IMG/VR virus record: IMGVR_UViG_3300005544_000021
Reading direction: 5' to 3' (one strand)
Source: a virus
Taxonomy: Duplodnaviria; Heunggongvirae; Uroviricota; Caudoviricetes
DNA: 64,000 bases
The notes under the pieces were generated by a model. It saw only the letters and a list, made by a program, of their open reading frames with translations, had not been told where the DNA came from and searched no databases. The stretch's first letter is position 1. Every line of letters begins with the position of its first letter. The position numbers and the translations under genes are program-made. This document shows, piece after piece, positions 4,915 to 64,000 of this stretch.

Positions 4915-5656
4915 TTAAACGATCAACCAATCCTTTTGGCTTCAAACTTGTTTTTGCCTGATTCGGATTTACTGGAATCGCCATTGGTTTAGTGGGATTA
5001 TGATAATTGTATCTTTCCTCGGGAGAATCAAACCACATCGGGGAACCTTTTTTCTTTTTGTTGTTTACATTATAAAATCCTGGTCCGGTCCAAGATTTTT
5101 GAACCCCCTCCCAAGATACTCCTTTGGTACTATGTAAATCTCTCTTCTTACGAGCCGCCCGTGCCCGTTGTCTTTCAACCTTTACCGCCTGAGCAGATAT
5201 TTTCTTGGTTGTATATTTCTTGGAGCGTTTTTGCTTTACCTCATTAGCCGCTTGTCTGATAGTTCGGGCAATACTCTTAGGATTACCAATCTTTAAGGTC
5301 TGACTAATTTTTTCAAACTTTTTGGCATGAGTGCTACCACTCATTAAATGCTTTTTAAGAGTGTTATATGCCTCAGTTTTCTTGGGGGGTTTTAGTTTAT
5401 CCCGGCGAGATATTTCGGCTCGGGCTTGAGCCCCAATTTCATCTTTACGCTTTTTTAGCTTACCCAAAGATTTATTGGACGTTTTGTGGGTAATTCTAAT
5501 CTTGCGGGCTTCTAAAAGAGCCAACTCAAATTCTTCCACGGTTAATGGTTTATGGGGGGCAACGGTGCGAGCCGATAATGTTTGTCGGGCATCTTCAACT
5601 TCTGGTTTAGTATTAATAACCTGATTAATGGAAGGTTGTTTCTTCTTTTTCGCCAT
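4865..5656 (-). CDS. highly basic Lys-rich protein (internal/DNA-associated candidate)
   Basis: 263 aa, very K/R-rich, no enzymatic motif. Confidence 0.3.
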   Translation of the reverse strand: MAKKKKQPSINQVINTKPEVEDARQTLSARTVAPHKPLTVEEFELALLEARKIRITHKTSNKSLGKLKKRKDEIGAQARAEISRRDKLKPPKKTEAYNTLKKHLMSGSTHAKKFEKISQTLKIGNPKSIARTIRQAANEVKQKRSKKYTTKKISAQAVKVERQRARAARKKRDLHSTKGVSWEGVQKSWTGPGFYNVNNKKKKGSPMWFDSPEERYNYHNPTKPMAIPVNPNQAKTSLKPKGLVDRLIDKVVGELHGNKHGSF

Positions 5657-5694
5657 GAATCCTTATTTATTCCCTAAAATCTAATTCCTTTTAT

Positions 5695-6381
5695 TTAGGA
5701 AATAGATTCAGGTAAAAAAAGCGTATCTGAACATGATCTTGCCACAATTTTATAATTCAAAGGTTTCAGCAAATTTTGAATAGAAAATGTTGGCATTTCT
5801 AGTAATAAGGCTGGTTTGTGTGTCTCCAAAGTTTTCATGGCTCCCTGTAAACATCGTAATTCATACCCTTCTACATCCAAATGAATTAAATCCAGGGTTG
5901 GAAATTCAAAATCATCAAGTCTAAGCATCGGGATAATACCTTGGGTGCGTTCTTCAATACTATGCATGCCAGTATTCTCTAAACACTTTTTTCGCATCCT
6001 AATCATGTGATGTTCATTACCCAAGGCGGCTTGAATTTTAATGATATTTTCTTTTTGGCAGTTATTTACTAAACAGTGAAAATTCAGTTCATCGGGTTCA
6101 AAGGTGTAGACGAGAGAAAAGAATTCTGAGTAAAGGCGGGGATAAAGCCCCATGTTTCCTCCCGCCTGAACTACACAATCAAACTTTTTGACATGTTGTT
6201 TTACAATGTTTCGGTGAGATTTTTCCCAATCGTCTTTTGGGCCATCCCAAGAACCATTATCTATTTTGATCCATGTCCATGGACCAACATTATCAACGAA
6301 CTCATTCCGAATATATGTTAATTCTTCCATCAATTTTCCCATAAAAAAAGAGGCCAAAAATGGCCTCCTATTTATAGACAA
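5695..6381 (-). CDS. FkbM-family SAM-dependent methyltransferase
   Basis: FDCVVQAGGNMGLY...YTFEPDELNFHCLVNN resembles the FkbM GxGxxG SAM-binding and FEP motifs; the ORF-track start is a TTG, and the true start is probably a downstream ATG (MGKL or MEEL). Confidence 0.5.
   Translation of the reverse strand: MSINRRPFLASFFMGKLMEELTYIRNEFVDNVGPWTWIKIDNGSWDGPKDDWEKSHRNIVKQHVKKFDCVVQAGGNMGLYPRLYSEFFSLVYTFEPDELNFHCLVNNCQKENIIKIQAALGNEHHMIRMRKKCLENTGMHSIEERTQGIIPMLRLDDFEFPTLDLIHLDVEGYELRCLQGAMKTLETHKPALLLEMPTFSIQNLLKPLNYKIVARSCSDTLFLPESIS
6369..6376 (-). promoter_or_regulatory. T4-type late promoter motif TATAAATA followed directly by AGGAGG
   Basis: Minus-strand reading ...GTTGTCTATAAATAGGAGGCCATTTTTGGCC... 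sits just upstream of the methyltransferase ATGs. Confidence 0.3.
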
Positions 6382-6387
6382 CTTTAG

Positions 6388-6567
6388 TTAACTTTGGTCA
6401 ACTTTGGGGTCTTTGTTTTTCATACCCTTAATCGCTGACGCGAGGTCAAGCACGAACTTACGCCAATGTTCTTTTTGCTCTTCCGTGTAGTGTGTTGCCC
6501 ACTCGCCACCATTGTTCCCCTTGGCCGCACGAATGGCGAATGCCTCAACGTCCTCCTTGCGGATCAT
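6388..6567 (-). CDS. 59-aa GC-rich hypothetical protein
   Basis: ATG at 6567-6565 preceded by GAGGAGG; MIRKEDVEAFAIRAAKGNNGGEWATHYTEEQKEHWRKF...; GC-richer than its surroundings. Confidence 0.3.
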   Translation of the reverse strand: MIRKEDVEAFAIRAAKGNNGGEWATHYTEEQKEHWRKFVLDLASAIKGMKNKDPKVDQS

Positions 6568-6628
6568 CGTCTATACCTCCTCAATTTCATACCCTTAGAT
6601 TACTAATCGTCTAGACCGGGCCAGCCAT

Positions 6629-6716
6629 CCTACGCCCACGTAGGCTTGGAGCCGTAATACATCGTCTTACGGCAGACGAATCGGAAAGGTTTATATTAGC
6701 GCGCTCTTACCTTTCC
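6629..6716. other. three consecutive stem-loops in a GC-rich intergenic spacer
   Basis: CCTACG-ccca-CGTAGG (6629-6644); GCCGTAA-9nt-TTACGGC (6651-6673); GGAAAGGT-18nt-ACCTTTCC (6683-6716, overlaps the stop of the 6707..6940 ORF). Confidence 0.35.
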
Positions 6717-6940
6717 AATCTCTCTCTATTATTTTCAAGTGTTATAACACCAGAAAAGACTAAGAACAGGCCCTCAATCCAATCTGTTCTATATTCTGAC
6801 TTTCCCCTATCAACAATATTTATTCCGCAGCGAGGAGATATAAAATAGACTATTTGAGATTCACTACCAGTAATTCCAATATATGGATACGTTCTATTTT
6901 TTAGTTCATGAAACCCCGTTACTTGTACTTTGACTGACAT
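6707..6940 (-). CDS. hypothetical protein
   Basis: ORF track 77 aa. Confidence 0.3.
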   Translation of the reverse strand: MSVKVQVTGFHELKNRTYPYIGITGSESQIVYFISPRCGINIVDRGKSEYRTDWIEGLFLVFSGVITLENNRERLER

Positions 6941-16181: not shown

Positions 16182-16889
16182 TCAACCACTTGCCAAGGAA
16201 TTTTTTATAACCTTGGAAGCAAACCAATGCTTACTATCTGGCTGAACATGATAGGGGCGAACCCATTTCGCTACATATATTCCGAAATCTTTATATGGGA
16301 TTTCTCCGCTATAACGCAGAACAAATCCTTCGTTGAATTGAGTATTGATTCTAGAAGATATGCTTGTCAATGTTTCAAAAGAAAACTTTCCCTCATAAAT
16401 TACTGGCACGGAAACAATTTTTGCATCCTGAAACACCTTTAACGTATCTTTCCAAGATAACGCTATATTATCTGCATTCCAAACAGAAAATCCATAGAAA
16501 TAATCTTGTAAATTAGTATATTGAATTGAGTGCTTAGCATAAAGATTTTCTCCACAAAATCGCCAATGCTGGGGAATCTTGTGAGCCTTTGAAGCCCAAA
16601 AATTTGCTAACCAGTCTCGGGATTCGTGTTTGCGTCGGGAATCCAACCCCCGAGCATGCCAATGTGTTTTATAGAGGGAGGTATTTTCTCCATCCATTTT
16701 TTCAGTTACAACAACATCTAGTCCATCAAATATTGATAAATCGTTTAATAATTCATCATCAAAAGAATATCCTGGAGAAAAAGGCATATGATTTGTTCTT
16801 GGATACTTCACGCTTGACACATAAAACTCCATTAATAAAAGATTATGAGGGTTCCACACGCGTCTGGGGCGGCGCGTAGTCACCCACAA
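16182..16889 (-). CDS. ATP-dependent RNA ligase, Rnl2-like nucleotidyltransferase domain
   Basis: Motif I VVTEKMDGEN (KxDGxN), motif IV-like EGFVL, motif V-like K-containing segment; short, so a stand-alone NTase-domain ligase. Confidence 0.55.
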   Translation of the reverse strand: MWVTTRRPRRVWNPHNLLLMEFYVSSVKYPRTNHMPFSPGYSFDDELLNDLSIFDGLDVVVTEKMDGENTSLYKTHWHARGLDSRRKHESRDWLANFWASKAHKIPQHWRFCGENLYAKHSIQYTNLQDYFYGFSVWNADNIALSWKDTLKVFQDAKIVSVPVIYEGKFSFETLTSISSRINTQFNEGFVLRYSGEIPYKDFGIYVAKWVRPYHVQPDSKHWFASKVIKNSLASG

Positions 16890-16903
16890 CCAAAAAAACT
16901 AGT

Positions 16904-17869
16904 TTATTGACGTGGGACGATTCCGTCTTTATCCACCCGCATAAATGGTGTGGTATTGCTTAGCATAGTTGAGGGAAGTTGTCCATTCCATCTTTCGGCT
17001 TTTCGTAATTCTGTTAAGTTGGCATTTTGAGCTAGGGCTTCGGCTTGGGCTTTAATGGCGGCGGCTTCTGCCTCGCCTTTTAGCTTAATTGCTTTGGCTT
17101 CAGCTTCGGCGGCTAACACACGGGAATCAGCATCTCCCCGAGCCTTTGTTCTTACTGTTTCCGCAACAGCCTTGGCTTGTTCCCATTCTTGATTCCGGGT
17201 TTCCACATTAGCCTTTGCAGCCGAAGCAGCATCAACAGCCTTGCGGAAAGATTCGGTAAATTCCAAGTTTGGAAGTTGGGTATCTATTACCTTTACTCCA
17301 AGTATTTTTGCATCTTCTACTAAGACATTATGTATTCGTAGAATTAACTCCCCCCGATGTTCCGAGACATGAGCCATATTAACCTTTCCCATTTCTCGCT
17401 TAATACGATCAAGGATAATACTCTGTAGTTGAGTTTTATACCCTTGAGCGTTTATGTAAATGAACTTTAAATTTTCTGGGGGCACTTGCCATAACACCTT
17501 ATAATAAACATCAACTTCCTGATTATCCAAGGTATATGTATTAGCTATTTTATCATTATGAGTATCTTGAATACCAATAGAAAATCTCTGAATTTCATTC
17601 ACGAATGGTGCCTTGAAGTGTAGTCCTGGACCTTCAACGGATTGAAATACACCAAACCTAGTTAAAACAACTCTTTCATATTCATCTACTGTATAGTATG
17701 TCATGAAGAATATCATAATACCAAAAAGAGCGAGGATTGCCCCGCCGACCGTGGTTATAATCTTTCCCATGGAAGATTCATCCTTTCTTGGATTTTGGGG
17801 TAGACTTTTGGGTGAGATGTTTTCGGAGTTCCGTTTCAAGGTCTTTGAGTTTCTGGGCTTCTTTTCCAT
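16904..17869 (-). CDS. SPFH/band-7 (HflK/C-prohibitin-like) membrane protein
   Basis: N-terminal TM (ITTVGGAILALFGIMIFF), SPFH-like core (ERVVLTRFG..., QLPNLEFTESF), then A/E/K-rich coiled-coil tail typical of HflK/C. Confidence 0.65.
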   Translation of the reverse strand: MEKKPRNSKTLKRNSENISPKSLPQNPRKDESSMGKIITTVGGAILALFGIMIFFMTYYTVDEYERVVLTRFGVFQSVEGPGLHFKAPFVNEIQRFSIGIQDTHNDKIANTYTLDNQEVDVYYKVLWQVPPENLKFIYINAQGYKTQLQSIILDRIKREMGKVNMAHVSEHRGELILRIHNVLVEDAKILGVKVIDTQLPNLEFTESFRKAVDAASAAKANVETRNQEWEQAKAVAETVRTKARGDADSRVLAAEAEAKAIKLKGEAEAAAIKAQAEALAQNANLTELRKAERWNGQLPSTMLSNTTPFMRVDKDGIVPRQ

Positions 17870-55058: not shown

Positions 55059-55068
55059 TAATAAAAAA

Positions 55069-55084
55069 GGGAGCCGAAGCTCCC
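55069..55084. terminator. bidirectional rho-independent terminator
   Basis: GGGAGC-cgaa-GCTCCC hairpin; on the minus strand it is followed by TTTTTTATTATT, directly downstream of the capsid gene. Confidence 0.6.
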
Positions 55085-55117
55085 TAATTTACGACACTAT
55101 ATAGAATGTCTTTCTGA

Positions 55118-56467
55118 TTACATCAGGTTTTGAACCAGGAACTTCCTGTAATACACGTTACTATCAACGTGAATGGTTCCAGAACCTTTTGTTAATCCCT
55201 CGGCAAATGGGTTGGCTGTCATGCCATAGCGAGTCTTAAACCCAAGGCGAGGAGTAAATGAATCGGGACGAACCGCATTCATCAACTGGAGAGGAACGTA
55301 TGGGCAGTAGTAAATACCCGCATCCCAGGCACTTGCCCCTTTATAACCGACCGTGATATAATGACCCCCAGAAGCATATGGATCAATATAACACTTAATA
55401 CGCCCATTTAGAACTCCGATAAAGGTACTACCTGTATCATCTGGATTGAGGGAGTTTTGTAGGGCTGGAGTATAATCTAATTGCTGAGCCGCTTGAAGGG
55501 CTGAAGCAACATCGGAAGTCATGATAGCGATATTACCGCGTCCCCGACGTGTAGCCTTAGCCAGAGCATTACATTCACGCTCTAGTTGGAAATGAATACC
55601 TTTCCACTTCTCTACTGACCAACGACCATTAGAATCGGTATCAAGATCAAAGAAACCAGCAGTCGTGGTGTTTTCCTGACAACCAATTTGGGCCGCAAGG
55701 TTAACAGTTCTCACAACTTCCCGATTAATTTCCGCAAGGATTTCAGTTGAAAGAATATTGATCAATTCTGCCCGAGCGTCCATACCATGAACAGCCTTTA
55801 GGTCTTGAGCAAGTTCAAGAGTATATTCAGCCGCCAGAGCCCGAGACTTTGCAGTTACGGTATTCTTTTCAATGCTGAAGCCCATCTGAGCAAAATCAGA
55901 GTTTGAATCCGTACCCAAAGCTTCGGCTTGGGCTGTGCTCATTCCACCGCCATAGTTATAGATACCAGTGGCTGCAAGGTTTGAAATTGCTGAAGAGTTA
56001 CCAGGAAGGGAACCGACATGTTTCAAGCCAAGTGTGTTTGCCCCTGAGAGTACTGAGGAAAACATGGTGTTGACTTCGTTATAGAAGGTTTCCGAACCAG
56101 TCTGGTTTGAATAGCGGGAACGCATGGCGAAAATCAAACCTGTTGGACCAGTCATTGGCTGCACGCCAACTAGATCATAAGCAATCAGATTTGGGGCCGA
56201 ACGCCGAACCATATTGATTAGAATTGGATCAAAGGTATCAATACCTCCTGATCCAGCAGTTGAGCTTGAAGCACCCATAAAGTTTACAGGGATAGCAGCT
56301 TCCAAGAGGTCACGGGGAATAGATTCCCGATTTAGCTTTAGTTCTCTCTCAGTATTCTCCATCAGAATGGCAGTAACAGTCTCCCGATGAGAATCTTTAA
56401 TCTTGGCATGTGAGGGATGCTCTAAAAGTCCGCCCCACTTGTCCTTTAGTTCTTCAGATAAAAACAT
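55118..56467 (-). CDS. 23: major capsid protein (T4 gp23 homolog)
   Basis: FDPILINMVRRSAPNLIAYDLVGVQPMTGPTGLIFAMRSRY parallels the conserved gp23 segment; strong terminator downstream. Confidence 0.85.
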   Translation of the reverse strand: MFLSEELKDKWGGLLEHPSHAKIKDSHRETVTAILMENTERELKLNRESIPRDLLEAAIPVNFMGASSSTAGSGGIDTFDPILINMVRRSAPNLIAYDLVGVQPMTGPTGLIFAMRSRYSNQTGSETFYNEVNTMFSSVLSGANTLGLKHVGSLPGNSSAISNLAATGIYNYGGGMSTAQAEALGTDSNSDFAQMGFSIEKNTVTAKSRALAAEYTLELAQDLKAVHGMDARAELINILSTEILAEINREVVRTVNLAAQIGCQENTTTAGFFDLDTDSNGRWSVEKWKGIHFQLERECNALAKATRRGRGNIAIMTSDVASALQAAQQLDYTPALQNSLNPDDTGSTFIGVLNGRIKCYIDPYASGGHYITVGYKGASAWDAGIYYCPYVPLQLMNAVRPDSFTPRLGFKTRYGMTANPFAEGLTKGSGTIHVDSNVYYRKFLVQNLM

Positions 56468-56516
56468 TAATTTATTTACTCCCTGTAATTTTCTTTATAC
56501 TTGTTTTATTTAGGAA

Positions 56517-57530
56517 TTACTTCATTTTAGAAGCAGCAAATACATACTGATTCATTTCTTTTGAAGTAATTGGTTTATCAGTTTCATCATCTAGGTGTTC
56601 AGATAGTAAATCTGAAGATGATTCATCCGCCGAACTTTTCTTGTTGGGAAAATACTTGGTCTTAACAGTTTGAAGTTTGTTTTGATAAGTATTCGGATCA
56701 AAGTCTAAATCCTCAACCAGAGTCCGGAATTTCTCTTTCTGAGAAAGAACTAGACCTTCGGTTACTTTATCAATTACTTCGTTCTTTTGATATTCAACAA
56801 GTTCATCCTTCAGAGCCATATTCTCTTCCATCGTGGAATTGAGTTTGGTTTCCATGGAATCAATTCTCTCAGCCATAGCTTCCAGAACGTCTTGTTTGTT
56901 TTCAGGAATGTTGAAATAATGTGCCTCAAACAGACCTTTTAGATCGCCAATAAAATCCTCAAAGATTTCAAGTTTGAGAGCATTTTCCACGGCGACTTCA
57001 TTCTCGTTTAGCCATTCTTGGGCAACATAGGTAATGTATTCATCAAAATTCTCGGTGAGGGCTTCAACAGCCTCGGAGATTTCTACTTCGGCGGCTTCCT
57101 GGATTTCTTCTTTGAGAACTGCTAAACGAGTACTTAGAGCAGCTTCAAATAAAGTTTCGGTCTTTTCCTTGAATTCAGCGGATAGTTCCTCGGTATCTTC
57201 CCCAAAGATTTCGGCAATGGCTTCTTTAATACTTTCCTTCATTGCGGCGTTTGCAAAAGAAGGTTTCATCATAATGCCAGCTTTGTTCTTATCTGACGTG
57301 CCATCAGGAATCTGATCGGACGCGGAACCACCCTGCATCTGTTTAACCATGTCCATAAAGTTATTAATATCGGCCCCATCCATGGTTCCAATCAGATTAA
57401 TAGCCTGAGACATAGCTTCCATTTTACTCATGGAAGGTTTCATTGCTACTGAATCAACATTATCAGAGTGTTGATCTTCGTCCACATTATCAATCTCGTT
57501 TTCTGTCATTACTTTCTTCTTTCTCGCCAT
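56517..57530 (-). CDS. 22: prohead core scaffold protein (gp22-like)
   Basis: Highly acidic, helical, between prohead protease and capsid genes. Confidence 0.55.
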   Translation of the reverse strand: MARKKKVMTENEIDNVDEDQHSDNVDSVAMKPSMSKMEAMSQAINLIGTMDGADINNFMDMVKQMQGGSASDQIPDGTSDKNKAGIMMKPSFANAAMKESIKEAIAEIFGEDTEELSAEFKEKTETLFEAALSTRLAVLKEEIQEAAEVEISEAVEALTENFDEYITYVAQEWLNENEVAVENALKLEIFEDFIGDLKGLFEAHYFNIPENKQDVLEAMAERIDSMETKLNSTMEENMALKDELVEYQKNEVIDKVTEGLVLSQKEKFRTLVEDLDFDPNTYQNKLQTVKTKYFPNKKSSADESSSDLLSEHLDDETDKPITSKEMNQYVFAASKMK

Positions 57531-57583
57531 TTTTAGAACAATCTCCGGATGTTAAAACTTGTGTTTATATTTAGTAATACTGT

Positions 57584-58441
57584 TTATTTACTAGGCCAGC
57601 GCCCTTGTTTAGCAGTAGTTTTTTGACCCTGTAAACCTAAACCTTTGGCTTTTTTGAGCATATTTGAAGCCGCTTTACCAGTCATATTAACGTGGGTAAC
57701 ACTACGGTCATGATTAATAATCGTTTTTTGTCCTCCCCCTAATGGGTTTAGCTTTCTATGAACCAGAAACTGGTTGTTATCTTCTTCGGGTAACATTAAA
57801 CCCAAGTAATAGCGGAATAACTCATACTTCTTTTCAAGTAGCTCACGCTTAGATATCTTTTTCATAGCCTTAGCAAGGTCTTCCACCTTGTTTTCCATAT
57901 AAGAACCCCGAGCGGCATCATATACCCAATCCACGCCTTCCATGATACCATTAACCCAACAATTTAAGCCTGAAGGATCAGTAACTGCATCTACCGTAAC
58001 AAGTTTGAAGTCATTTTGAACTTCCTGGAGACCTTGGGAATTGGGCTTTACGGAGCCTAAACCTCGGGTACTCATTCCAAACCGACCCCCCGATTCAATA
58101 ATGGAACGCATAATTTTGCCCTGGCCTTCATCTAAAACTACAGCCTTTCCAATTACATTATTACCATCCCAATCTAGAGACGTAATTCTGTGTGAGATTC
58201 TTTCCTCATTTATCTTTGGTCCCTGAGGGTGTCCCCATTCTCCATAGGCTGTTTTGTTATTGATCTTATCCTTGACAAAACCTTCAACCACAGGTTCCAT
58301 AATTCCCTTAGAATAAATTCTATTATTCCGATTAGGAGTATTAACGCTAATGTAAGGTCCAGCGACATAGAGGAACTTTTTTCCGTCCTTTTCTTCGGTG
58401 AGGTATTGAACGTCTTGGGATATTTCGGATATTAACTTCAT
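57584..58441 (-). CDS. 21: prohead core protease (T4 gp21 homolog)
   Basis: AYGEWGHPQGP...GMSTRGLGS...FKLVTVDAVTDPS parallels T4 gp21 (ALGELNHPPRA...GVSSRGLGS...FKLTVGVDAVWGPS). Confidence 0.75.
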   Translation of the reverse strand: MKLISEISQDVQYLTEEKDGKKFLYVAGPYISVNTPNRNNRIYSKGIMEPVVEGFVKDKINNKTAYGEWGHPQGPKINEERISHRITSLDWDGNNVIGKAVVLDEGQGKIMRSIIESGGRFGMSTRGLGSVKPNSQGLQEVQNDFKLVTVDAVTDPSGLNCWVNGIMEGVDWVYDAARGSYMENKVEDLAKAMKKISKRELLEKKYELFRYYLGLMLPEEDNNQFLVHRKLNPLGGGQKTIINHDRSVTHVNMTGKAASNMLKKAKGLGLQGQKTTAKQGRWPSK

Positions 58442-58887
58442 TTCTTCTTTCTTTTCTTTGGTGGTTTTGGAAAATCTATACCAGCATTTGATAAGCTTCC
58501 GTGTCTTCCTTTACCCTTAACAGATGAGACAACAGAACCAGGAGTTATTGGAGAGTCGTCATAAGTTACTGGATTTACTCTTTTTTTTGCCCCCCGTTTT
58601 TTTGGATATGAGATAAGATTATCTTTTCCTACTGGAGAAGAAGAAGTTAGTTTATTTTTTAGCCATTTTTTCCAATCAAACACTTCTTTTATTCCTGACA
58701 TACCATGATTTGGGGGAACTAAACGACGCTTTCTAATTTGCTCAATATCATAATCCATACTATCTTTATGTGGTAAACCAGCTTTTCTTCTGGCTTTACT
58801 ATCATTTATAGCATCAATATCATAATCCATACTGTCTTTGGGAGGACAATTCTTTTTTCTTTTGAGTATGTCTCGTAATTTTTTCAT
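58438..58887 (-). CDS. basic protein with internal KDSMDYDI repeat (prohead core/internal protein candidate)
   Basis: PPKDSMDYDIDAIND and LPHKDSMDYDIEQIRK duplicated; K/R-rich. Confidence 0.3.
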   Translation of the reverse strand: MKKLRDILKRKKNCPPKDSMDYDIDAINDSKARRKAGLPHKDSMDYDIEQIRKRRLVPPNHGMSGIKEVFDWKKWLKNKLTSSSPVGKDNLISYPKKRGAKKRVNPVTYDDSPITPGSVVSSVKGKGRHGSLSNAGIDFPKPPKKRKKK

Positions 58888-58891
58888 GCTT

Positions 58892-59935
58892 CTATTTATT
58901 ATTTTCTTTTAATTCCCCAACATAATCATGTATTCTATGTCCTGGAAGATCAAAATCTCCTCCTGGATATTTCATACCTTTCCAGGAACATTTTGGGCAA
59001 GAATGTAAAACTGATCCCTGATGGTTTGTGCCTATCTTTTCTAAATTTCCACAAGCCCGACATTTATACATTCGGCGTTTATGTTGGGGGTAATGTTCTT
59101 TTGGGGGCTCCTTTTTCTTCTTTGGAAATTGTATTACGTCCCCTTCTTTCAAACCAATCTTTGCTTTAATCTTATCTTTCAGGCTCTTTGGTTTAACTCC
59201 AAATAGTTGTTCTCCTGCTTTTTTAGCCTTGGATTTATTCCGAACAACTTTATTATGATGAACCGACTGATCCCCCGCCACATGAATCGCATGATGAATT
59301 AAGTGATGGGATTCATTTTTGGATGTAATTGGTTTTTTGAATTTGGTATATTTTCTCTTGACTCGTTCAACCTTGGCATATATCTTAACTAGATCAGCCG
59401 CAGGCTTGACTAATTGTTTATTATATGGCAAGGCGGCTATGGTTGCAGCCCCAATTGTGTTGCGTATTTTCTTACGTAGTTTTTTGTCGTTAAATTTTGT
59501 CTTTGCCCAATCCGAGAAATCTGAATTCTCTTTGAGTTTATAAGGATGGGTATATTTTACCGGGTGGGCATCTCGCCATTTTCCATGATCATAACCCTTA
59601 CTCCAGGGAGCATCTTTTTGTCCGGGTTCTTTTTCATAACCATCCTTGGGATGATGGGATTTAGACCATAAGGCTCTTTTTAATGCTGAATCCCCTTTTC
59701 GTTTTTGTAGCATACCTTGGGCAGTTTTCCAGGCTTTCATATTTCTATGAGCCTTATGATAATCCTTTGCCACGGGATCAAATTCTGCACTTCGGAATGG
59801 ACCAGAACCTGAGCCTTTATTTTTTAAGTGATCAACAATTTTATTCCGATGCTTTAATGCCCGATGTCCATATTTTGCAATGGCATCTTTTAATTCATCA
59901 TCAGAATGGGGGTTCTCGTTAAGCATCCGAATCAA
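58892..59935 (-). CDS. basic His/Lys-rich internal head protein candidate with C-terminal zinc ribbon
   Basis: N-terminal MIRMLNE motif (LxE); CRACG...CPKC. Confidence 0.35.
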   Translation of the reverse strand: MIRMLNENPHSDDELKDAIAKYGHRALKHRNKIVDHLKNKGSGSGPFRSAEFDPVAKDYHKAHRNMKAWKTAQGMLQKRKGDSALKRALWSKSHHPKDGYEKEPGQKDAPWSKGYDHGKWRDAHPVKYTHPYKLKENSDFSDWAKTKFNDKKLRKKIRNTIGAATIAALPYNKQLVKPAADLVKIYAKVERVKRKYTKFKKPITSKNESHHLIHHAIHVAGDQSVHHNKVVRNKSKAKKAGEQLFGVKPKSLKDKIKAKIGLKEGDVIQFPKKKKEPPKEHYPQHKRRMYKCRACGNLEKIGTNHQGSVLHSCPKCSWKGMKYPGGDFDLPGHRIHDYVGELKENNK

Positions 59936-60638
59936 CTAATTCATTAGGTTTCTTATGACGAAACGATTTCACTTCTATTTTTTTATCATGTCCAAAATGT
60001 TCTTTTGCTTTATGTTCAATGTCATATGAGGATATATAAGCGTCATTATTTTTAGCATATTTCATCATATACCCTTGAGAGAAACCATATGTATTCAAAT
60101 GCTTTAATCCATGTTGTTTCATGTGCTCATGGAATTTTTTTTCTTTAGCTTCCCCAAATTTTGAATGAACATTCACCCATACTCCCCCATGTCTAGGGTT
60201 TTTATGATCTATTTCATAAGCTAAGTTTTGTACATATTCAGGCTTCATTCTAGTTTTAATACCTAAAGCCATTCCCCGATAATACAATTCTGCAACTTCA
60301 GTAGGAGATTTACCCTGAGATAAATGACGAGCAATATGTATTGTTACTATTTTTCGTTCATCTTTGGAAAGTTGGAAACGTTTGGGTTTTGCATACTCTT
60401 TAGGTCTTTTACCCGCCGCAGGATACTTATGTTTATCTGGTAGGTTTACAAAAGAACCAGATTTTCCATCTTTACCTGAACGATAATTTTTTCCCTTGTT
60501 ATGATTTTTCCAGGCTAAAGCATATGCTAGTCCAGGAGCCATACCTTCTTTTTTGCGATGTTCTATCCATTTCCGCATTGCAGGAGTTGGAGCTTTTTCA
60601 TTTAGAATATCCCGGAAACGTTTAATCATAAATGGCAC
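59919..60638 (-). CDS. basic His/Lys-rich internal head protein candidate
   Basis: N-terminal RDILNEK (LxE); KHLNTYGFS segment resembles KHLTTVHGFS in 2209..4914. Confidence 0.35.
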   Translation of the reverse strand: MPFMIKRFRDILNEKAPTPAMRKWIEHRKKEGMAPGLAYALAWKNHNKGKNYRSGKDGKSGSFVNLPDKHKYPAAGKRPKEYAKPKRFQLSKDERKIVTIHIARHLSQGKSPTEVAELYYRGMALGIKTRMKPEYVQNLAYEIDHKNPRHGGVWVNVHSKFGEAKEKKFHEHMKQHGLKHLNTYGFSQGYMMKYAKNNDAYISSYDIEHKAKEHFGHDKKIEVKSFRHKKPNELVDSDA

Positions 60639-60993
60639 TACTATTAGATGAGGTTTTTCCTAATTCAAGCATAATGAAAGAATTTGCGGTATCAGTACAA
60701 GTACAATTAATGGTTGCCGCCGCATCAAGGCTCATACTTGCCCCCTCACCCATTAAGTCCAGAAATTGTTCAGTTCCCGGAGCCAAGATAAGAACGGTAT
60801 TTGAACCTCTTTTTACAAACCAGTTTGCGGCTCCACTCCACCAAACTCGGCGTATAGTAGCTGATTGAACAACCTCAGTGGTAGTTGCAATATTAGAAGT
60901 GGCATTATTTCCCGCAACTGTTATGGCCACATTTGCCACAGAATGCAGCAAAACTTTACCATAAGGTTGATTCACCATTAATCTCTCGGCCAT
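60622..60993 (-). CDS. hypothetical protein
   Basis: ORF track 123 aa, A/T/S-rich. Confidence 0.25.
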   Translation of the reverse strand: MAERLMVNQPYGKVLLHSVANVAITVAGNNATSNIATTTEVVQSATIRRVWWSGAANWFVKRGSNTVLILAPGTEQFLDLMGEGASMSLDAAATINCTCTDTANSFIMLELGKTSSNSSAIYD

Positions 60994-60994
60994 T

Positions 60995-61276
60995 TTACTT
61001 CTTTACTCCATATAAGTCTTTACAAGTTATTCCAGGTTTTAACCCTCCGGGACGCATTAAATCAAATCCCAGAACATAGGCTGGTATAATTATTGTTGGG
61101 AAGAATATAGCCCCGATAATAACTCCCGGATAATTTAAATGATAGTTAACTGTTCCATCAGCATTCATAATATTCAACATCCCATAACCAGGATAATAAG
61201 AACCACAGATTGTTTTAGCTTCCACGCTCGTAAATGCGAAAATTGAAATTAGAAATGCTAGGATAAATTTATTCAT
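60995..61276 (-). CDS. small secreted/membrane protein encoded directly downstream of the C1 peptidase
   Basis: ATGA overlap with peptidase stop; signal peptide MNKFILAFLISIFAFTSVEA; C-terminal hydrophobic segment; two Cys. Confidence 0.35.
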   Translation of the reverse strand: MNKFILAFLISIFAFTSVEAKTICGSYYPGYGMLNIMNADGTVNYHLNYPGVIIGAIFFPTIIIPAYVLGFDLMRPGGLKPGITCKDLYGVKK

Positions 61277-62028
61277 ATAACTTGTTGAATACTCCAGAAA
61301 TCGTCGCAAAGATTTGCGTTTGTTAAGTAAGAATATGGCATATAATAAATCCCATGATCCCCAACCGATGTTCCCCAAGAATTACGAATCATAAATTCCT
61401 TGGTGAAATCATTATATCCAACACAACAAATTGCATGTCCGCCAAGCATCTTTTCATGTACCTGAGGCATCGGAACATGACCCCCTTTATCTCCCTGATA
61501 AAAACTATCATAGATTGCCGCCCCGAAAACAAACAGTTCTCCATTATCCAAACAGCTTCTTAAGACATCAAGGTTGGTATTATCCAGGCGATAATAATTC
61601 AGAGCTTTGTATTTCTTGGCATTCTGGTAACAAGCCGCTGGAGGTTTGAAGGCAAAATATTCAGGATGATAAGCCCAAAGATGTTCATCACAATATCCCT
61701 GAGTGGCTACTGATTTAATGCCATCTCGTATTTCAGCCCCAGCATCTGAGGTAATTGTGCCTTCCATCCAACGCTCATTATAATAAATGAATAGACGGGA
61801 GGGAGTGAAGTCTTGAATTTTTTGTTGAATACGATTATATTCTAGAATGGCGGCAATAGCATGGGCTGTGCAAGAACCAAGTTCCCCTTGATCCCAAATA
61901 GGGGGACAATTATGGCGTAAATCAACAACCTTATCTTGACGAGCCGCAAGGTGCATAAGTTTATAGTTATGATACCATAAGTCTCGTTGATCAGGTTTGT
62001 CTGGTTTCCATCCTAGTTTCCGATTCAT
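61273..62028 (-). CDS. papain-like cysteine peptidase (C1A family), no pro-domain
   Basis: Catalytic Gln-Cys spacing as in papain (DQGELGSC; Q six residues before C), His in GGHAICCVGY, Asn in RNSWG; begins like a mature papain N-terminus. Confidence 0.7.
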   Translation of the reverse strand: MNRKLGWKPDKPDQRDLWYHNYKLMHLAARQDKVVDLRHNCPPIWDQGELGSCTAHAIAAILEYNRIQQKIQDFTPSRLFIYYNERWMEGTITSDAGAEIRDGIKSVATQGYCDEHLWAYHPEYFAFKPPAACYQNAKKYKALNYYRLDNTNLDVLRSCLDNGELFVFGAAIYDSFYQGDKGGHVPMPQVHEKMLGGHAICCVGYNDFTKEFMIRNSWGTSVGDHGIYYMPYSYLTNANLCDDFWSIQQVI

Positions 62029-62227
62029 TAATACTTGGGCCTTTTATTGTGATATTTTTTTCCTGATTGTCCTTCAAACTCCCTATCTTGTTTTAGGTGT
62101 TTGTTGGACTTTTTTACACTATAAATCTTTCCCGGAGTGCCCCCAAAAGTGTCCTTACCCCGTTCTCTTTCCGTCTTTGTTAACATCTGCCACAAAGAAT
62201 TGATTTTTGTGGTCAGTTTACCTTCAC

Positions 62228-62845
62228 TTAGTTTGGACTCGGCTCGGGAACGAAAGGGCTATCTTCTGATTCAACCTCGCCATCACAATCGTCATCCTTG
62301 GCTTCCTCGGAATCATCATCCTTTTCTTCCTCTGGATCAGGATCAGTAAATAAAGACGCCGCTAGGTTCTTTTTATATTCTTCAATCGCCCCGTCTAGTC
62401 TTTGTTTAATAGCTAGATCAAAAATCTCTGCAACCTTGGCTGGTTCTTTATTCAAGATAGCATCAGCTACTTCCATTAAATTAATAGGCTCTACTACCTT
62501 TTCGGCTGGCTTTTTGGTTTCATCTTCAGCTTCTTCTTCGTTCTCTTCACTAAGAGTTTCAAAGACTTGAACAATTTCATCATCGGATAATCCGTCCTCT
62601 CTCATTTCGGCAATTAGAGCATCAAGCTCGGCATCAATTTGTTCCTCAGTAACTTCCTGCTCTTGATCTTGTTTCATTTCTTCCTCTTCTTTATAGGGGC
62701 GATATTTTTCTCTATTAGCTCTTCCAGTTTCATGCTTTGCAACAGTTTCTCTGTCTTTATCAGACTTAGCATTTACCATTCTACGAAGAATCCGTCCCAT
62801 GTTTTTATCATGTTTTTGGGATTTGGGTGTTGCATATTTCGTCAT
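62228..62845 (-). CDS. highly acidic protein (prohead core/scaffold-associated candidate)
   Basis: E/D-rich low-complexity, located between portal and head protease region. Confidence 0.3.
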   Translation of the reverse strand: MTKYATPKSQKHDKNMGRILRRMVNAKSDKDRETVAKHETGRANREKYRPYKEEEEMKQDQEQEVTEEQIDAELDALIAEMREDGLSDDEIVQVFETLSEENEEEAEDETKKPAEKVVEPINLMEVADAILNKEPAKVAEIFDLAIKQRLDGAIEEYKKNLAASLFTDPDPEEEKDDDSEEAKDDDCDGEVESEDSPFVPEPSPN

Positions 62846-62851
62846 TTTTTA

Positions 62852-64000
62852 TTATGCGGCCTTCTTCGTTGATGATTTGTTATTATTTAGGGGTTTTTGA
62901 CTTTGATCTGTCATCGGGGCTTGAACTGATAAACCTTGTGGACCCCCTTGTTGATCCATTCCGGGTTCTCCCTCCATACCCATAGCTTGTCCTTCAGGCA
63001 TACCCAAAGGAGCCTGATATAATGGATTTTGCAATTCTTCCATAACTTGCTCGTCCATATTCTCAATATCCTCATCGGTTTGTTTTAGGATATTCTTTCT
63101 CACCCATTCATTAGAGAAATACCGCCCAACATAGGGAGCAATTAATTGGAGAGTTGTTAGCCGACCATTAATAACTTCTCGCTCTTTTAATTCGGCAAAG
63201 ATATTATTTCTGGCATAGGTAAATTTGATCTTATAAGAAATAGCATCCCATTCGGTAGGTAATAGAATACCTTTTAAGATAAGCTGTTTCTTCAGGGCTT
63301 CTAGAAATAAGTTATTGAAACGTAAGCGAATATTGTCAATGAACATTCCGAAGTTGATTTCATCTCGGGATATTTCCCCAGCATTCATACCCTGGAACAT
63401 AGATTCGGGGTGGGTGCGAGAAAAAGGAACATTCAAGGCATCATATAATCTTTGTTTGAAGAACTCCACTTCATCAATAACTCCCGAAGAATCTCCCCCC
63501 GGAAGAGTATCAACTTCCGTGCCACCACTTTCCCGTCTGGCTAACCAAAAATCTTCAAGCATCGTCATCATTTTACGATTATCTTGAATCTCTCCAGTCT
63601 CGGCATTATAAACCAAGCGATTCTTGAACTTGGTCATTAATTGCTGAATATATTGCTCGGCCTTAATTCGGGGTAAATTTCCGGTGTCAATATAAAAAAC
63701 TCGTCTTTCGGGTGCCCGAGCCAACCGATAAATGATGGCTGCGTCTTCCAAGGCTCGTAGCTGATTTAGGGGTTTGATCGCCTTATGAAGATGGGATAAA
63801 ACCATCGTTCCTGTTTCGTTGGTGATTCCACTCGTAACATACAGAATGGAATCCTTGGCAATTTTTAATCCTGTCGTGGGGGAAGAATATTGAAACGAGG
63901 GGTTTGCATTAGAAACAAAGCCTCGGGGATTAAAAATGAAATATTCATTCTTAACTTGTGTAACCATTTCCAATCCCGGAACTTTAGATAAAGTCGGATC
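62852..64000 (-). CDS. 20: portal protein (T4 gp20 homolog), C-terminal part; gene continues past the window end
   Basis: Reading frame open through position 64000; RLARAPERRVFYIDTGNLP...KAEQYIQQLM...LEDFWLARRESGGTEVDTLPGG resembles conserved gp20 segments. Confidence 0.6.
   Translation of the reverse strand, partial: DPTLSKVPGLEMVTQVKNEYFIFNPRGFVSNANPSFQYSSPTTGLKIAKDSILYVTSGITNETGTMVLSHLHKAIKPLNQLRALEDAAIIYRLARAPERRVFYIDTGNLPRIKAEQYIQQLMTKFKNRLVYNAETGEIQDNRKMMTMLEDFWLARRESGGTEVDTLPGGDSSGVIDEVEFFKQRLYDALNVPFSRTHPESMFQGMNAGEISRDEINFGMFIDNIRLRFNNLFLEALKKQLILKGILLPTEWDAISYKIKFTYARNNIFAELKEREVINGRLTTLQLIAPYVGRYFSNEWVRKNILKQTDEDIENMDEQVMEELQNPLYQAPLGMPEGQAMGMEGEPGMDQQGGPQGLSVQAPMTDQSQKPLNNNKSSTKKAA

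Follow-up and report, generated by a model that had tools for sequence, protein, structure and literature searches.

A xylellain-type papain-family cysteine peptidase gene in the head-gene block of an uncultured T4-like phage

The stretch of DNA that was analysed, here called the window, comprises 64,000 nucleotides of a T4-like phage (IMG/VR record IMGVR_UViG_3300005544_000021). Between its genes for the portal protein (gp20) and for the prohead protease, scaffold and major capsid proteins (gp21, gp22 and gp23), the window contains a gene for a short C1A (papain-family) cysteine peptidase and, directly downstream, a small ORF of 93 codons. All genes of the region are on the minus strand (Table 1). 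The placement of the peptidase gene between gp20 and the gp21/gp22/gp23 block, made in a preliminary description from the letters of the sequence, is borne out by the protein families of the genes on either side. The same description held that genes of this interval normally encode prohead core or internal proteins, and the other genes of the interval are indeed of that type.

Table 1. Genes and sequence features of the peptidase region, in window coordinates.
Feature	Position	Strand	Description and basis
Portal protein gp20	62852..64000	-	PF07230 (Portal_T4), matched by the full-length gene in L088; tblastn matches with the L006 and L008 portals
Acidic gp67-like prohead core protein	62228..62845	-	205 aa; PHROG 1064 'prohead', E 2.3e-5; homologs in L004 and L006
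Small basic ORF	62032..62186	-	About 51 aa from ATG; sequence read; uncalled, also in L088
Peptidase ORF	61273-62028	-	251 aa, ATG start; xylellain-type short C1A (papain-family) cysteine peptidase
N-terminal extension of the peptidase	61930..62028	-	33 residues (mini pro-region); alignment; shared with xylellain
Codon of Gln47	61888-61890	-	Catalytic residue of the peptidase
Codon of Cys53	61870-61872	-	Catalytic residue of the peptidase
Codon of His198	61435-61437	-	Catalytic residue of the peptidase
Codon of Asn216	61381-61383	-	Catalytic residue of the peptidase
93-aa ORF	60995..61276	-	Small membrane protein
123-aa head-module gene	60622..60993	-	tblastn matches in L004, L006, L008 and L009
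Three very basic ORFs	58438..60629	-	236, 344 and 149 aa; pI 9.9-10.3; flanked by the 123-aa gene and gp21
gp21 prohead protease (285 aa), gp22 scaffold, gp23 major capsid protein	55118..58441	-	PF03420, PF25623, PF07068
Terminator	55068-55085		Terminator scan

The portal gene extends at its 5' end beyond the window and encodes 558 amino acids in the full contig. The small basic ORF that precedes the peptidase gene has a stop codon overlapping the peptidase start (TAATG) and, by positional analogy, takes the place of small basic ORFs of 120 and 85 amino acids in the viral loci L004 and L006. On the other side, the 123-aa gene adjoins the peptidase gene in all head-module loci; its product matches a 114-aa ORF of L093 (45% identity, E 2e-25) and a 105-aa ORF that immediately precedes gp21 in Stenotrophomonas phage DLP6 (30% identity, E 1e-9), and tblastn with the gene gave no GenBank phage match. 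Two of the three very basic ORFs, those of 236 and 344 amino acids, begin with T4 internal-protein-like leaders ending in LNE (MIKRFRDILNE/K and MLNE/N). ORFs of L004 and DLP6 at the same place also have CTS-like leaders ending in [LI]xE, and the basic ORFs of the window are candidates for packaged internal proteins. The annotation of the DLP6 protein at the equivalent position as a holin was discarded as an indication of lysis, the protein having a CTS-like leader and no hydrophobic segment. Searches of Pfam, PHROGs and NCBIfam gave no match for the 93-, 123-, 236- and 149-aa ORFs, and the 344-aa ORF matched no Pfam or PHROG family and, weakly, a zinc ribbon. The prohead protease gp21 is intact (PF03420, E 3.7e-30), and the capsid protein retains a gp21-type site (LLE/A).

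The peptidase matches Pfam family PF00112 (Peptidase_C1) over residues 35-231 with a score of 35.3 bits (cut-off 20.7; E 1.7e-8), and PHROG 16701 ('peptidase') with an E value of 4e-15. Peptidase_C1 is its only domain, and its length fits the 250-260 amino acids that are usual in the family. The closest solved structure is that of xylellain from Xylella fastidiosa (3OIS; E 2.6e-58), of which residues 33-289 align with residues 5-250 of the peptidase. An AlphaFold model (pLDDT 92.4, pTM 0.91) predicts the two-lobed papain fold, and Foldseek placed 3OIS first among the matches to this model (TM 0.89); next came cathepsins K, S, L and B, papain and Der p 1, with E values of about 1e-12. The full papain catalytic set that had been read from the ORF (Gln-6-Cys, the His of GGHA and the Asn of NSWG) is present as Gln47-x5-Cys53 (in DQGELGSC), G196-G197-His198-Ala199 and Asn216-Ser217-Trp218-Gly219, motifs that line up with DQGSCGSC, GGHAI and NSW of procathepsin B. 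Residues Q47, C53, H198, N216, S217 and W218 are invariant in an alignment of 33 homologs. Cys53 is the predicted nucleophile and His198 the predicted general base, with Asn216 orienting the histidine and Gln47 contributing to the oxyanion hole. Judged by profile, predicted structure and catalytic residues together, the protein is a complete papain-family C1A enzyme with intact catalytic residues, and it is predicted to be active.

The papain-like mature start of the peptidase (VVDLR) is preceded by a 33-residue extension that aligns with xylellain from chain residue 33 onward and contains a family-invariant motif, G6-W7-x4-P12-D13-x-R15-D16. Confidence of the model is lower at residues 11-30 (pLDDT 57-61). 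A Pfam search found no I29 prodomain, and the N-terminus is hydrophilic (MNRKLGWKPDKPDQRD) with no signal peptide; the peptidase does not follow the eukaryote-type C1A zymogen plan of signal peptide plus I29, and has only the 33-residue extension in that place. According to the xylellain structure paper, an N-terminal segment reportedly blocks the active site of that enzyme as part of an activation mechanism. By analogy with xylellain, the conserved extension of the phage peptidase may gate its active site in an autoinhibitory manner. A T4-type capsid-targeting leader (about ten residues ending in [LI]xE) is absent from the N-terminus. The sole [LI]xE of the protein comprises residues 61-63, within the catalytic helix, and both the peptidase and all of its orthologs begin 4-8 residues ahead of the GW motif, like the bacterial proteins, with no CTS-like leader. 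Of three features that the preliminary description had found missing, the signal peptide and the LxE leader are indeed missing, but the pro-region is missing only in the sense of an I29 prodomain, a conserved extension common to xylellain being present.

The peptidase belongs to a large and widely distributed family, with more than 8000 homologs found by sequence search. From bacterial and archaeal genomes, 598 of 600 candidate stretches were confirmed as homologs, and the best 80 of these 598, which come from many phyla, are approximately 48-54% identical to the peptidase. A scan of viral contigs with the single sequence gave no match, and a scan with an alignment identified 505 contigs with confirmed relatives, including jumbo phages and giant-virus bins. 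In Arsenophonus, xylellain-like genes are located in or near phage regions. The available text of a published study describes horizontal acquisition of xylellain-type short C1A peptidases by Myoviridae, Siphoviridae and Mimiviridae, and gives no genomic position or function for the viral proteins (PMC10380794). The peptidase of the window is of exactly the class set out in that text, a short bacterial C1A enzyme acquired by Caudoviricetes and giant viruses, and the novelty at first implied for it was overstated, since xylellain-type C1A enzymes of myoviruses already figure there (PMC10380794). Two observations made here are absent from the available text of PMC10380794, namely the recurrent positions of the gene in T4-like phages and the lack of an I42 inhibitor gene beside the viral copies. 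A literature search for the function of phage C1 peptidases gave nothing specific. No cultured T4-like phage in GenBank possesses the peptidase gene, and a search of GenBank phages for DNA nearly identical to the head region returned no match, which indicates that the phage is uncultured.

Among T4-like phages, the peptidase gene recurs at two places: in the interval between the portal and prohead protease genes (six loci, including the window), or beside the DNA polymerase gene. A search for homologs at the head locus of other T4-like genomes, proposed in the preliminary description, yielded copies in L004 (67% identity to the peptidase), L006 (56%), L008/L009 (54%) and L093 (57%). In L003, L092 and L090 the gene adjoins the DNA polymerase gene (gp43), and in L091 it follows an RNaseH-like gene. 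The peptidases of T4-like phages group together in a neighbour-joining tree and are 58-59% identical between phages with DNA polymerases that are 50-52% identical. Conservation at least equal to that of DNA polymerase, together with two fixed places in the genome, points to a real, selected function. The GC3 of the peptidase gene is that of its neighbours.

The closest cultured phage by capsid protein is DLP6 (64.7%), which has the same head module, including a homolog of the 123-aa protein, without the peptidase. Because DLP6 keeps the 123-aa homolog and has no peptidase, the 123-aa gene was rejected as the true partner of the peptidase. Hundreds of other viral contexts of the peptidase are unrelated to heads. 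The gene would thus be an accessory one that entered T4-like phages by horizontal transfer and is kept under purifying selection, at genome positions that differ among lineages. In the phage of the window and a small clade of relatives, it is located between the portal and prohead protease genes in close packing with late head genes, without being a canonical prohead component. Its occurrence at six head loci, in two arrangements and beside the 123-aa gene, could nevertheless reflect a head-related role and not mere linkage.

The 93-aa ORF was predicted independently by a gene caller on two assemblies, and its ATG overlaps the stop codon of the peptidase gene (ATGA), as originally described. 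Hydrophobic residues 4-18 of its product, followed by VEA/K, resemble a signal peptide; beyond about 30 hydrophilic residues, the hydropathy profile has a second hydrophobic segment at approximately residues 50-70 and a 22-aa tail of net charge +3. The cleavable signal peptide attributed to this protein has its counterpart in the N-terminal sequence, but the hydrophobic tail also attributed to it proves to be a membrane segment inside the protein, with a charged tail after it. At most the 22-aa tail would be cytoplasmic, the remainder being predicted to be exported or embedded in the membrane. A word-indexed search made the ORF appear to be an orphan, a result overturned by a full HMMER scan that found about 60 full-length homologs (E 1e-10 to 1e-3). 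On the strength of these alignments, the protein is assigned to an uncharacterised phage family, whose members are small membrane proteins resembling lipoproteins. Most members have a lipobox, whereas the copy in the window lacks the lipobox cysteine and has FTSVEA/K instead of L-x-G-C. Identification of the protein as a unimolecular spanin was rejected for want of this cysteine and because the hydrophilic segment of about 30 residues is too short to span the periplasm.

Members of the 93-aa family are found among small ORFs in early or replication-type regions of large phages, with no C1 peptidase there; in the 176 other loci examined for this, the family and a C1 peptidase do not co-occur. 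The syntenic loci L004, L006, L008/L009 and L093 do not have the ORF, and Pfam and HMM searches of the 93-aa protein found no signature of I42 or another inhibitor. The ORF would be an independently mobile envelope-protein gene, inserted between the peptidase gene and a resident 123-aa gene, and not a functional partner of the peptidase.

The head block has the layout of a tight operon, with overlapping start and stop codons. Promoter-like matches inside the block are outnumbered by those in shuffled sequence, and scans for sigma-70 promoters and terminators revealed neither a promoter nor a terminator specific to the peptidase gene in its surroundings; the only strong terminator of the block is located after gp23. 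T4 late promoters were also looked for: TATAAATA occurs once, against 7.2 occurrences expected, and CTAAATA is not enriched. The peptidase gene is probably co-transcribed with the late head genes. In bacteria, a gene for a chagasin-type (I42) inhibitor is directly beside the peptidase gene in 10 of the 80 loci of the best homologs. An HMM derived from these ten neighbours was run against 11,566 ORFs from six-frame translation of the window and of the viral loci, and no I42 gene (PF09394) was found in the window or in approximately 95 viral loci. The lack of a chagasin-type inhibitor in the phage copies suggests that the protease is unrestrained in the infected cell.

On balance, the gene probably encodes a xylellain-type accessory protease that is free in the cytoplasm and co-transcribed with late head genes, and to which the 93-aa ORF is unrelated. 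Because the peptidase has neither a signal peptide nor a capsid-targeting leader nor an I42 inhibitor, it most likely acts as a soluble protease, free in the cytoplasm during infection, where it would cut host or phage proteins.

Alternatively, a protease without an inhibitor may have been recruited to the head block for the virion programme, either as injected cargo that needs no leader and acts on host proteins (for example, defence factors), or as an envelope protease that assists lysis late in infection. This is unlikely; if true, the peptidase would be the first effector of the papain family to come from a T4-like phage. The preliminary description had suggested a packaged or injected effector, which in specific form would be loaded into the prohead with the basic internal-protein-like products, injected, and active in cleaving host proteins early. 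The presence of the gene in the portal-to-gp21 interval in six loci fits this idea, as do the absence of an inhibitor gene and the CTS-like leaders ending in [LI]xE on the 236- and 344-aa neighbours and on ORFs there in L004 and DLP6. With such internal-protein-like leaders among the neighbours of the peptidase, packaging by another route may occur. However, the idea is weakened by the lack of a CTS-like leader on the peptidase and its orthologs (the only [LI]xE being at 61-63), by the location of the same gene on the polymerase side, in the replication module, of related T4-like phages, and by the hundreds of viral contexts that have nothing to do with heads, and it is quite improbable.

A role in lysis has a similarly low probability. 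The peptidase and the overlapping membrane protein would form a mini lysis unit, in which the peptidase, released or activated at the envelope along with a holin-like protein, would cleave envelope proteins or peptide stems late in infection. Peptidase_C1 is the sole domain of the peptidase; C1 domains are known from one endolysin with several domains and from some lysis cassettes. Gordonia phage Morgana has a cysteine protease between lysin A and holin, and the 'endolysin' of Alicyclobacillus phage MMB025 consists of Peptidase_C1, a GH25-like domain and PG_binding_1, both examples being more distant C1-family domains. Directly after a close homolog in L005, at +0, comes a Peptidase_M15_4 protein (M15 endolysin); endolysins of an amidase family recur in L010, L032, L037 and L061, no more than 4 kb away from the peptidase (in L032 about 1 kb downstream); and in L037 a 60-aa ORF with two membrane segments directly follows the peptidase. 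The 93-aa protein itself has hydrophobic segments and a basic C-terminal tail, and its gene has the ATGA overlap. However, the 93-aa ORF is absent from all five syntenic relatives, and its family is mostly lipoprotein-like and located in early or replication-type regions. In 80 viral loci, small membrane ORFs show no clear enrichment downstream of the peptidase (about 23%, against a background of 17%), and the copies beside DNA polymerase are probably expressed early. No C1A enzyme that cuts the peptidoglycan of Gram-negative hosts is known to us, and the real lysis genes may lie in the rest of the 182-kb genome, outside the window.

It is very improbable that the peptidase is a second head-maturation enzyme, trimming scaffold, core or internal proteins beside the serine protease gp21. 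Its gene is co-located and probably co-transcribed with gp21, gp22, gp23 and the basic core-like proteins, and it keeps its place beside the 123-aa head-module gene across loci; against this, gp21 is intact and the capsid protein keeps its LLE/A site, DLP6 builds a related head without the peptidase, and orthologs are found in replication modules as well as in viruses outside the T4 group, giant viruses among them. Least probable of all is the initial suggestion that the 93-aa protein serves the peptidase as its own inhibitor, chaperone or membrane anchor, for which the ATGA overlap offers translational coupling and the small I42 gene beside bacterial relatives (10 of 80 best-homolog loci) offers a precedent, but which conflicts with the absence of an I42 signature, the predicted export or membrane embedding of all but the 22-aa tail, the syntenic relatives without the ORF and the lack of co-occurrence of its family with a C1 peptidase in the 176 other loci.

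The peptidase is one more phage copy of a family of proteases whose movement between bacteria and large viruses was already known, and the finding is in itself ordinary for that reason. E-64 or a cognate I42 inhibitor would provide a simple experimental handle on the phage enzyme, and a lytic phage offers what may be an easy way of finding the substrate of xylellain-type enzymes.

Among known systems, the closest is xylellain, to which the peptidase is approximately 40% identical over its whole length (E 2.6e-58, TM 0.89), and with which it shares the absence of a signal peptide and of I29, the short conserved N-terminal extension, and the same catalytic residues. In contrast to xylellain, the phage copy is encoded in the head-gene block of a lytic T4-like phage, and, relative to the crystallised construct (part of it possibly a tag), its N-terminus begins about 28 chain positions later. 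The bacterial pairs of C1A and chagasin (I42) genes involve a peptidase of the same family, whereas the small ORF adjacent to the peptidase gene of the window encodes a membrane protein of another family. With the T4 internal proteins and Alt, which are targeted to the capsid and processed by gp21, the likeness is one of genomic neighbourhood: the peptidase gene is surrounded by prohead-core and internal-protein-like genes, and its neighbours have leaders of the type MK..(F/L)(I/L)xE, but the peptidase has none. T4 Imm/Sp, T5 Llp and the T1 unimolecular spanin gp11 are small proteins that combine a membrane segment with a signal or lipobox at the N-terminus. The 93-aa protein is like them in these general features, namely its small size, its signal/lipobox type of N-terminus and its membrane segment.

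Profile, structure and residue conservation together confirm, in sequence detail, that the 251-aa ORF encodes a papain-family peptidase. It matches Pfam Peptidase_C1 with 35.3 bits, above the cut-off of 20.7, and PHROG 16701; among solved structures, its best match is xylellain from Xylella fastidiosa (3OIS; E 2.6e-58 over peptidase residues 5-250), with cathepsin B and other papain-family enzymes far behind. An AlphaFold model built with 33 homologs as input has a mean pLDDT of 92.4 and a pTM of 0.91, and a Foldseek search of the PDB with this model ranked xylellain first (TM 0.89), followed by cathepsins, papain and Der p 1. Gln47, Cys53, His198, Asn216, Ser217 and Trp218 are unchanged in all 33 homologs, and the catalytic motifs line up with their counterparts in procathepsin B. 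The preliminary description, which had proposed this identity and suggested a profile search and structure prediction as checks, was therefore right about the peptidase, with one correction. It had stated that there is no pro-region: the I29 prodomain of eukaryote-type C1A enzymes is indeed absent, but a 33-residue extension, common to xylellain and holding the family-wide invariant residues G6, W7, P12, D13, R15 and D16, comes before 'VVDLR', where the papain-like mature sequence starts. In xylellain, a stretch of the N-terminus reportedly blocks the active site, and by analogy the extension of the phage enzyme may do the same.

The peptidase belongs to a known and very mobile family. A homolog search returned at least 8000 homologs, and when prokaryotic genomes, one per species, were scanned, at least 598 stretches among 600 candidates listed were confirmed; the best 80 prokaryotic matches of those listed, all approximately 48-54% identical to the peptidase, came from Bacteroidota, Acidobacteriota, Actinomycetota, Chloroflexota, Verrucomicrobiota, Proteobacteria and even one archaeon. 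Relatives are encoded on 505 viral contigs, including 200-600 kb jumbo phages and giant-virus bins. Among the GenBank phages searched, the top matches were an uncultured 595-kb phage and Burkholderia jumbo phage FLC9, and the gene was not found in any cultured T4-like phage. A 2023 papain-family survey (PMC10380794) describes horizontal acquisition of xylellain-type short C1A peptidases by Mimiviridae, Myoviridae and Siphoviridae.

In the final 9 kb of the window (38% G+C), all genes lie close together on the minus strand (see table). An independent gene caller, run on the 181,816-bp parent contig and a second assembly, recovered the same set, the 93-aa ORF among them. No near DNA match to this phage was found in GenBank phages; its nearest cultured relative in terms of capsid protein, Stenotrophomonas phage DLP6, reaches only 64.7%. 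The small basic ORF fills a 200-bp 'gap' upstream of the peptidase, whose start its stop overlaps (TAATG), and basic ORFs of 120 aa (L004) and 85 aa (L006) occupy the equivalent site in two related loci. The gp21 prohead protease has a basic C-terminal extension of about 65 residues that is missing in relatives of 219-228 aa (L004, L008, L093 and DLP6); that of L006 is also of the long form (292 aa).

Features of the window and of compared loci (a slash marks the end of a leader)
Feature	Source	Coordinates	Strand	Remark
Portal	window	62852 to window end	-	
gp67-like acidic protein, 205 aa	window		-	between portal and small basic ORF
Small basic ORF, about 51 aa from its ATG	window	62032-62186	-	uncalled by pipeline on parent contig
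Peptidase, 251 aa	window	61273-62028	-	
93-aa ORF	window	60995-61276	-	
123-aa ORF	window	60622-60993	-	
123-aa family	DLP6 (L085)	6539-6856		
123-aa family	L093	4578-4922		
Very basic ORFs of 236, 344 and 149 aa	window		-	between 123-aa ORF and gp21
Leader-bearing ORFs	window	58892-60629	-	MIKRFRDILNE/K (236 aa); MLNE/N (344 aa)
344-aa protein	window	58892-59926	-	
Leader-bearing ORF, 120 aa	L004	811-1173		MKTLRQVLQNE/G
Leader-bearing ORFs	DLP6 (L085)	5491-6536		MSQKTYNDLINE/V (gp013)
AAY80_013, 85 aa	DLP6 (L085)	5491-5748		GenBank 'holin'
gp21 prohead protease, 285 aa	window	57584-58441	-	after the basic ORFs; then gp22 scaffold, gp23 capsid protein (-)
Terminator	window	55068-55085		sole strong one of head block
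SPFH/Band 7 protein (321 aa) and RNA ligase (235 aa)	window	16182-17869	-	
Peptidase directly upstream of DNA polymerase	L003	10001-13274		
Peptidase directly upstream of DNA polymerase	L092	7001-10269		
Peptidase one gene from DNA polymerase	L090	7001-10305		
Peptidase after RNaseH-like gene	L091			replication module
Peptidase just upstream of portal gene	L054	10001-11062		
SegE-like GIY-YIG homing endonuclease	parent contig (L088)	2983-3825	opposite	past window end, between terminase and tail-sheath genes
753-aa 'endolysin'	phage MMB025 (L086)	3881-6142		
I42 inhibitor	L155	5742-6131		
I42 inhibitor	L126	3479-3772		

Two sites of the peptidase recur in T4-like phages. Homologs at the portal-gp21 interval, which the preliminary description had suggested looking for, are present in L004 (peptidase 67% identical, capsid protein 84%), L006 (56% and 83%), L008/L009 (54% and 72%) and L093 (peptidase 57%); the second site is the replication module. 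The T4-like copies group apart from those of Bacteroidota in a neighbour-joining tree, the peptidases of the window phage and the L003/L092 phages are 58-59% identical whereas their DNA polymerases are less so (50-52%), and the GC3 of the gene is that of its neighbours. These observations indicate that the gene is old in the T4-like group and under purifying selection, yet not tied to the head module. The SPFH/Band 7 membrane-scaffold protein and RNA ligase genes of the window lie just upstream of its DNA polymerase gene, where related phages keep the peptidase. In the more distant T4-like contig L054 (178 kb), an unrelated ORF of 101 aa with a single membrane segment comes after the peptidase.

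A homolog of the 123-aa gene adjoins the peptidase, before or after it, in every portal-gp21 locus. As a partner it was rejected, because the head module of DLP6 comprises a gp67-like gene, leader-bearing ORFs, a 123-aa homolog and gp21 but no peptidase; the gene is a resident of the head module. Its unannotated family (105-131 aa) is conserved in this T4-like branch immediately before gp21 (or the peptidase); no similarity to known prohead core families was detected, and T4 gp68 is a possible counterpart.

The peptidase lacks a signal peptide and a capsid-targeting leader, as originally described, and the block has neither an inhibitor gene of the bacterial type nor a terminator for the peptidase alone in the head-block scan; promoter-like matches within the block are fewer than in shuffled sequence. 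The simplest reading, which we consider rather probable, is that the peptidase would be a soluble cytoplasmic cysteine endopeptidase, produced alongside the late head proteins and targeting proteins within the infected cell, with the conserved N-terminal extension as a possible gate. A single copy of the T4 late-promoter core TATAAATA is present in the 64 kb, versus 7.2 expected by chance, and so the canonical sequence is evidently not in use by this phage.

That the peptidase is a packaged effector, as first suggested, would fit its genome position and its leader-bearing neighbours: ORFs of the portal-gp21 interval in the window, L004 and DLP6 have leaders like those of T4 internal proteins with a gp21-type [LI]xE end, and these proteins (very basic in the window, pI about 10) are probably packaged internal proteins of this clade. 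However, the peptidase itself has no such leader and its orthologs adjoin DNA polymerase, which leaves this suggestion unsupported and unlikely. The 344-aa protein ends in a zinc-ribbon-like CxxC...CxxC motif (residues about 287-314), with weak, below-threshold matches to Zn_ribbon_8 and TIGR02605. AAY80_013 has a capsid-targeting-like leader and no hydrophobic segment, and so its 'holin' annotation looks wrong.

Equally doubtful is a role as lysis helper, although a Gordonia lysis cassette and a multidomain Alicyclobacillus endolysin contain more distant C1 domains, and M15 or amidase endolysins are near close homologs in five loci (L005, L010, L032, L037 and L061). The pairing with the 93-aa ORF is not conserved, small membrane-protein neighbours are not clearly enriched, and the replication-module copies speak against a lysis-specific role. 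The endolysin of Alicyclobacillus phage MMB025 combines an N-terminal Peptidase_C1 with Ig-like, GH25-like glycosidase and PG_binding_1 domains, the papain-family domain serving as one module of a cell-wall lysin. That the peptidase is a second maturation protease is very improbable.

Least probable of all is that the 93-aa ORF is a dedicated partner. Its start does overlap the peptidase end (ATGA), as originally described, and its stop is one base ahead of the next ATG, so that it is predicted to be translationally coupled at both ends; a signal-peptide-like N-terminus is likewise borne out by the hydropathy layout, followed by roughly 30 hydrophilic residues, one hydrophobic stretch and a tail with a net charge of +3. 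A word-indexed search found only the ORF itself, and a full HMMER scan of 1.84 billion representatives found approximately 60 full-length homologs (80-130 aa), with conserved motifs, a lipobox (L-x-G-C) in most members and no Pfam match. Where contigs are long, family members have early or replication-type neighbours in large phages (RNaseH, dCMP deaminase, DNA ligase) and in no case a C1 peptidase beside them; none of the other loci compared that hold a viral or bacterial peptidase homolog contains a member, and all five syntenic relatives lack the ORF. The partnership is thus unsupported, and these contexts point to a small envelope protein, independently mobile and inserted after the peptidase, ahead of the 123-aa gene; by analogy, it might have a superinfection-exclusion-type role.

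The proposal that the 93-aa protein is an inhibitor has a true precedent, but in another protein. When the neighbours of 80 prokaryotic peptidase loci were clustered, the one dominant adjacent family was the chagasin I42 inhibitor (PF09394; E 1e-14 to 1e-20), within about 125 bp of the peptidase in 10 of the 80. An HMM of these inhibitors matched nothing in the window, the 93-aa ORF included, or in approximately 95 viral loci; it seems that phages acquire the protease without its inhibitor. In Arsenophonus, xylellain-like genes are located inside or near phage regions, and no substrate of xylellain itself has yet been identified (PMC12090721); the main value of the phage peptidase is as a tractable entry to this protease family without a known substrate.
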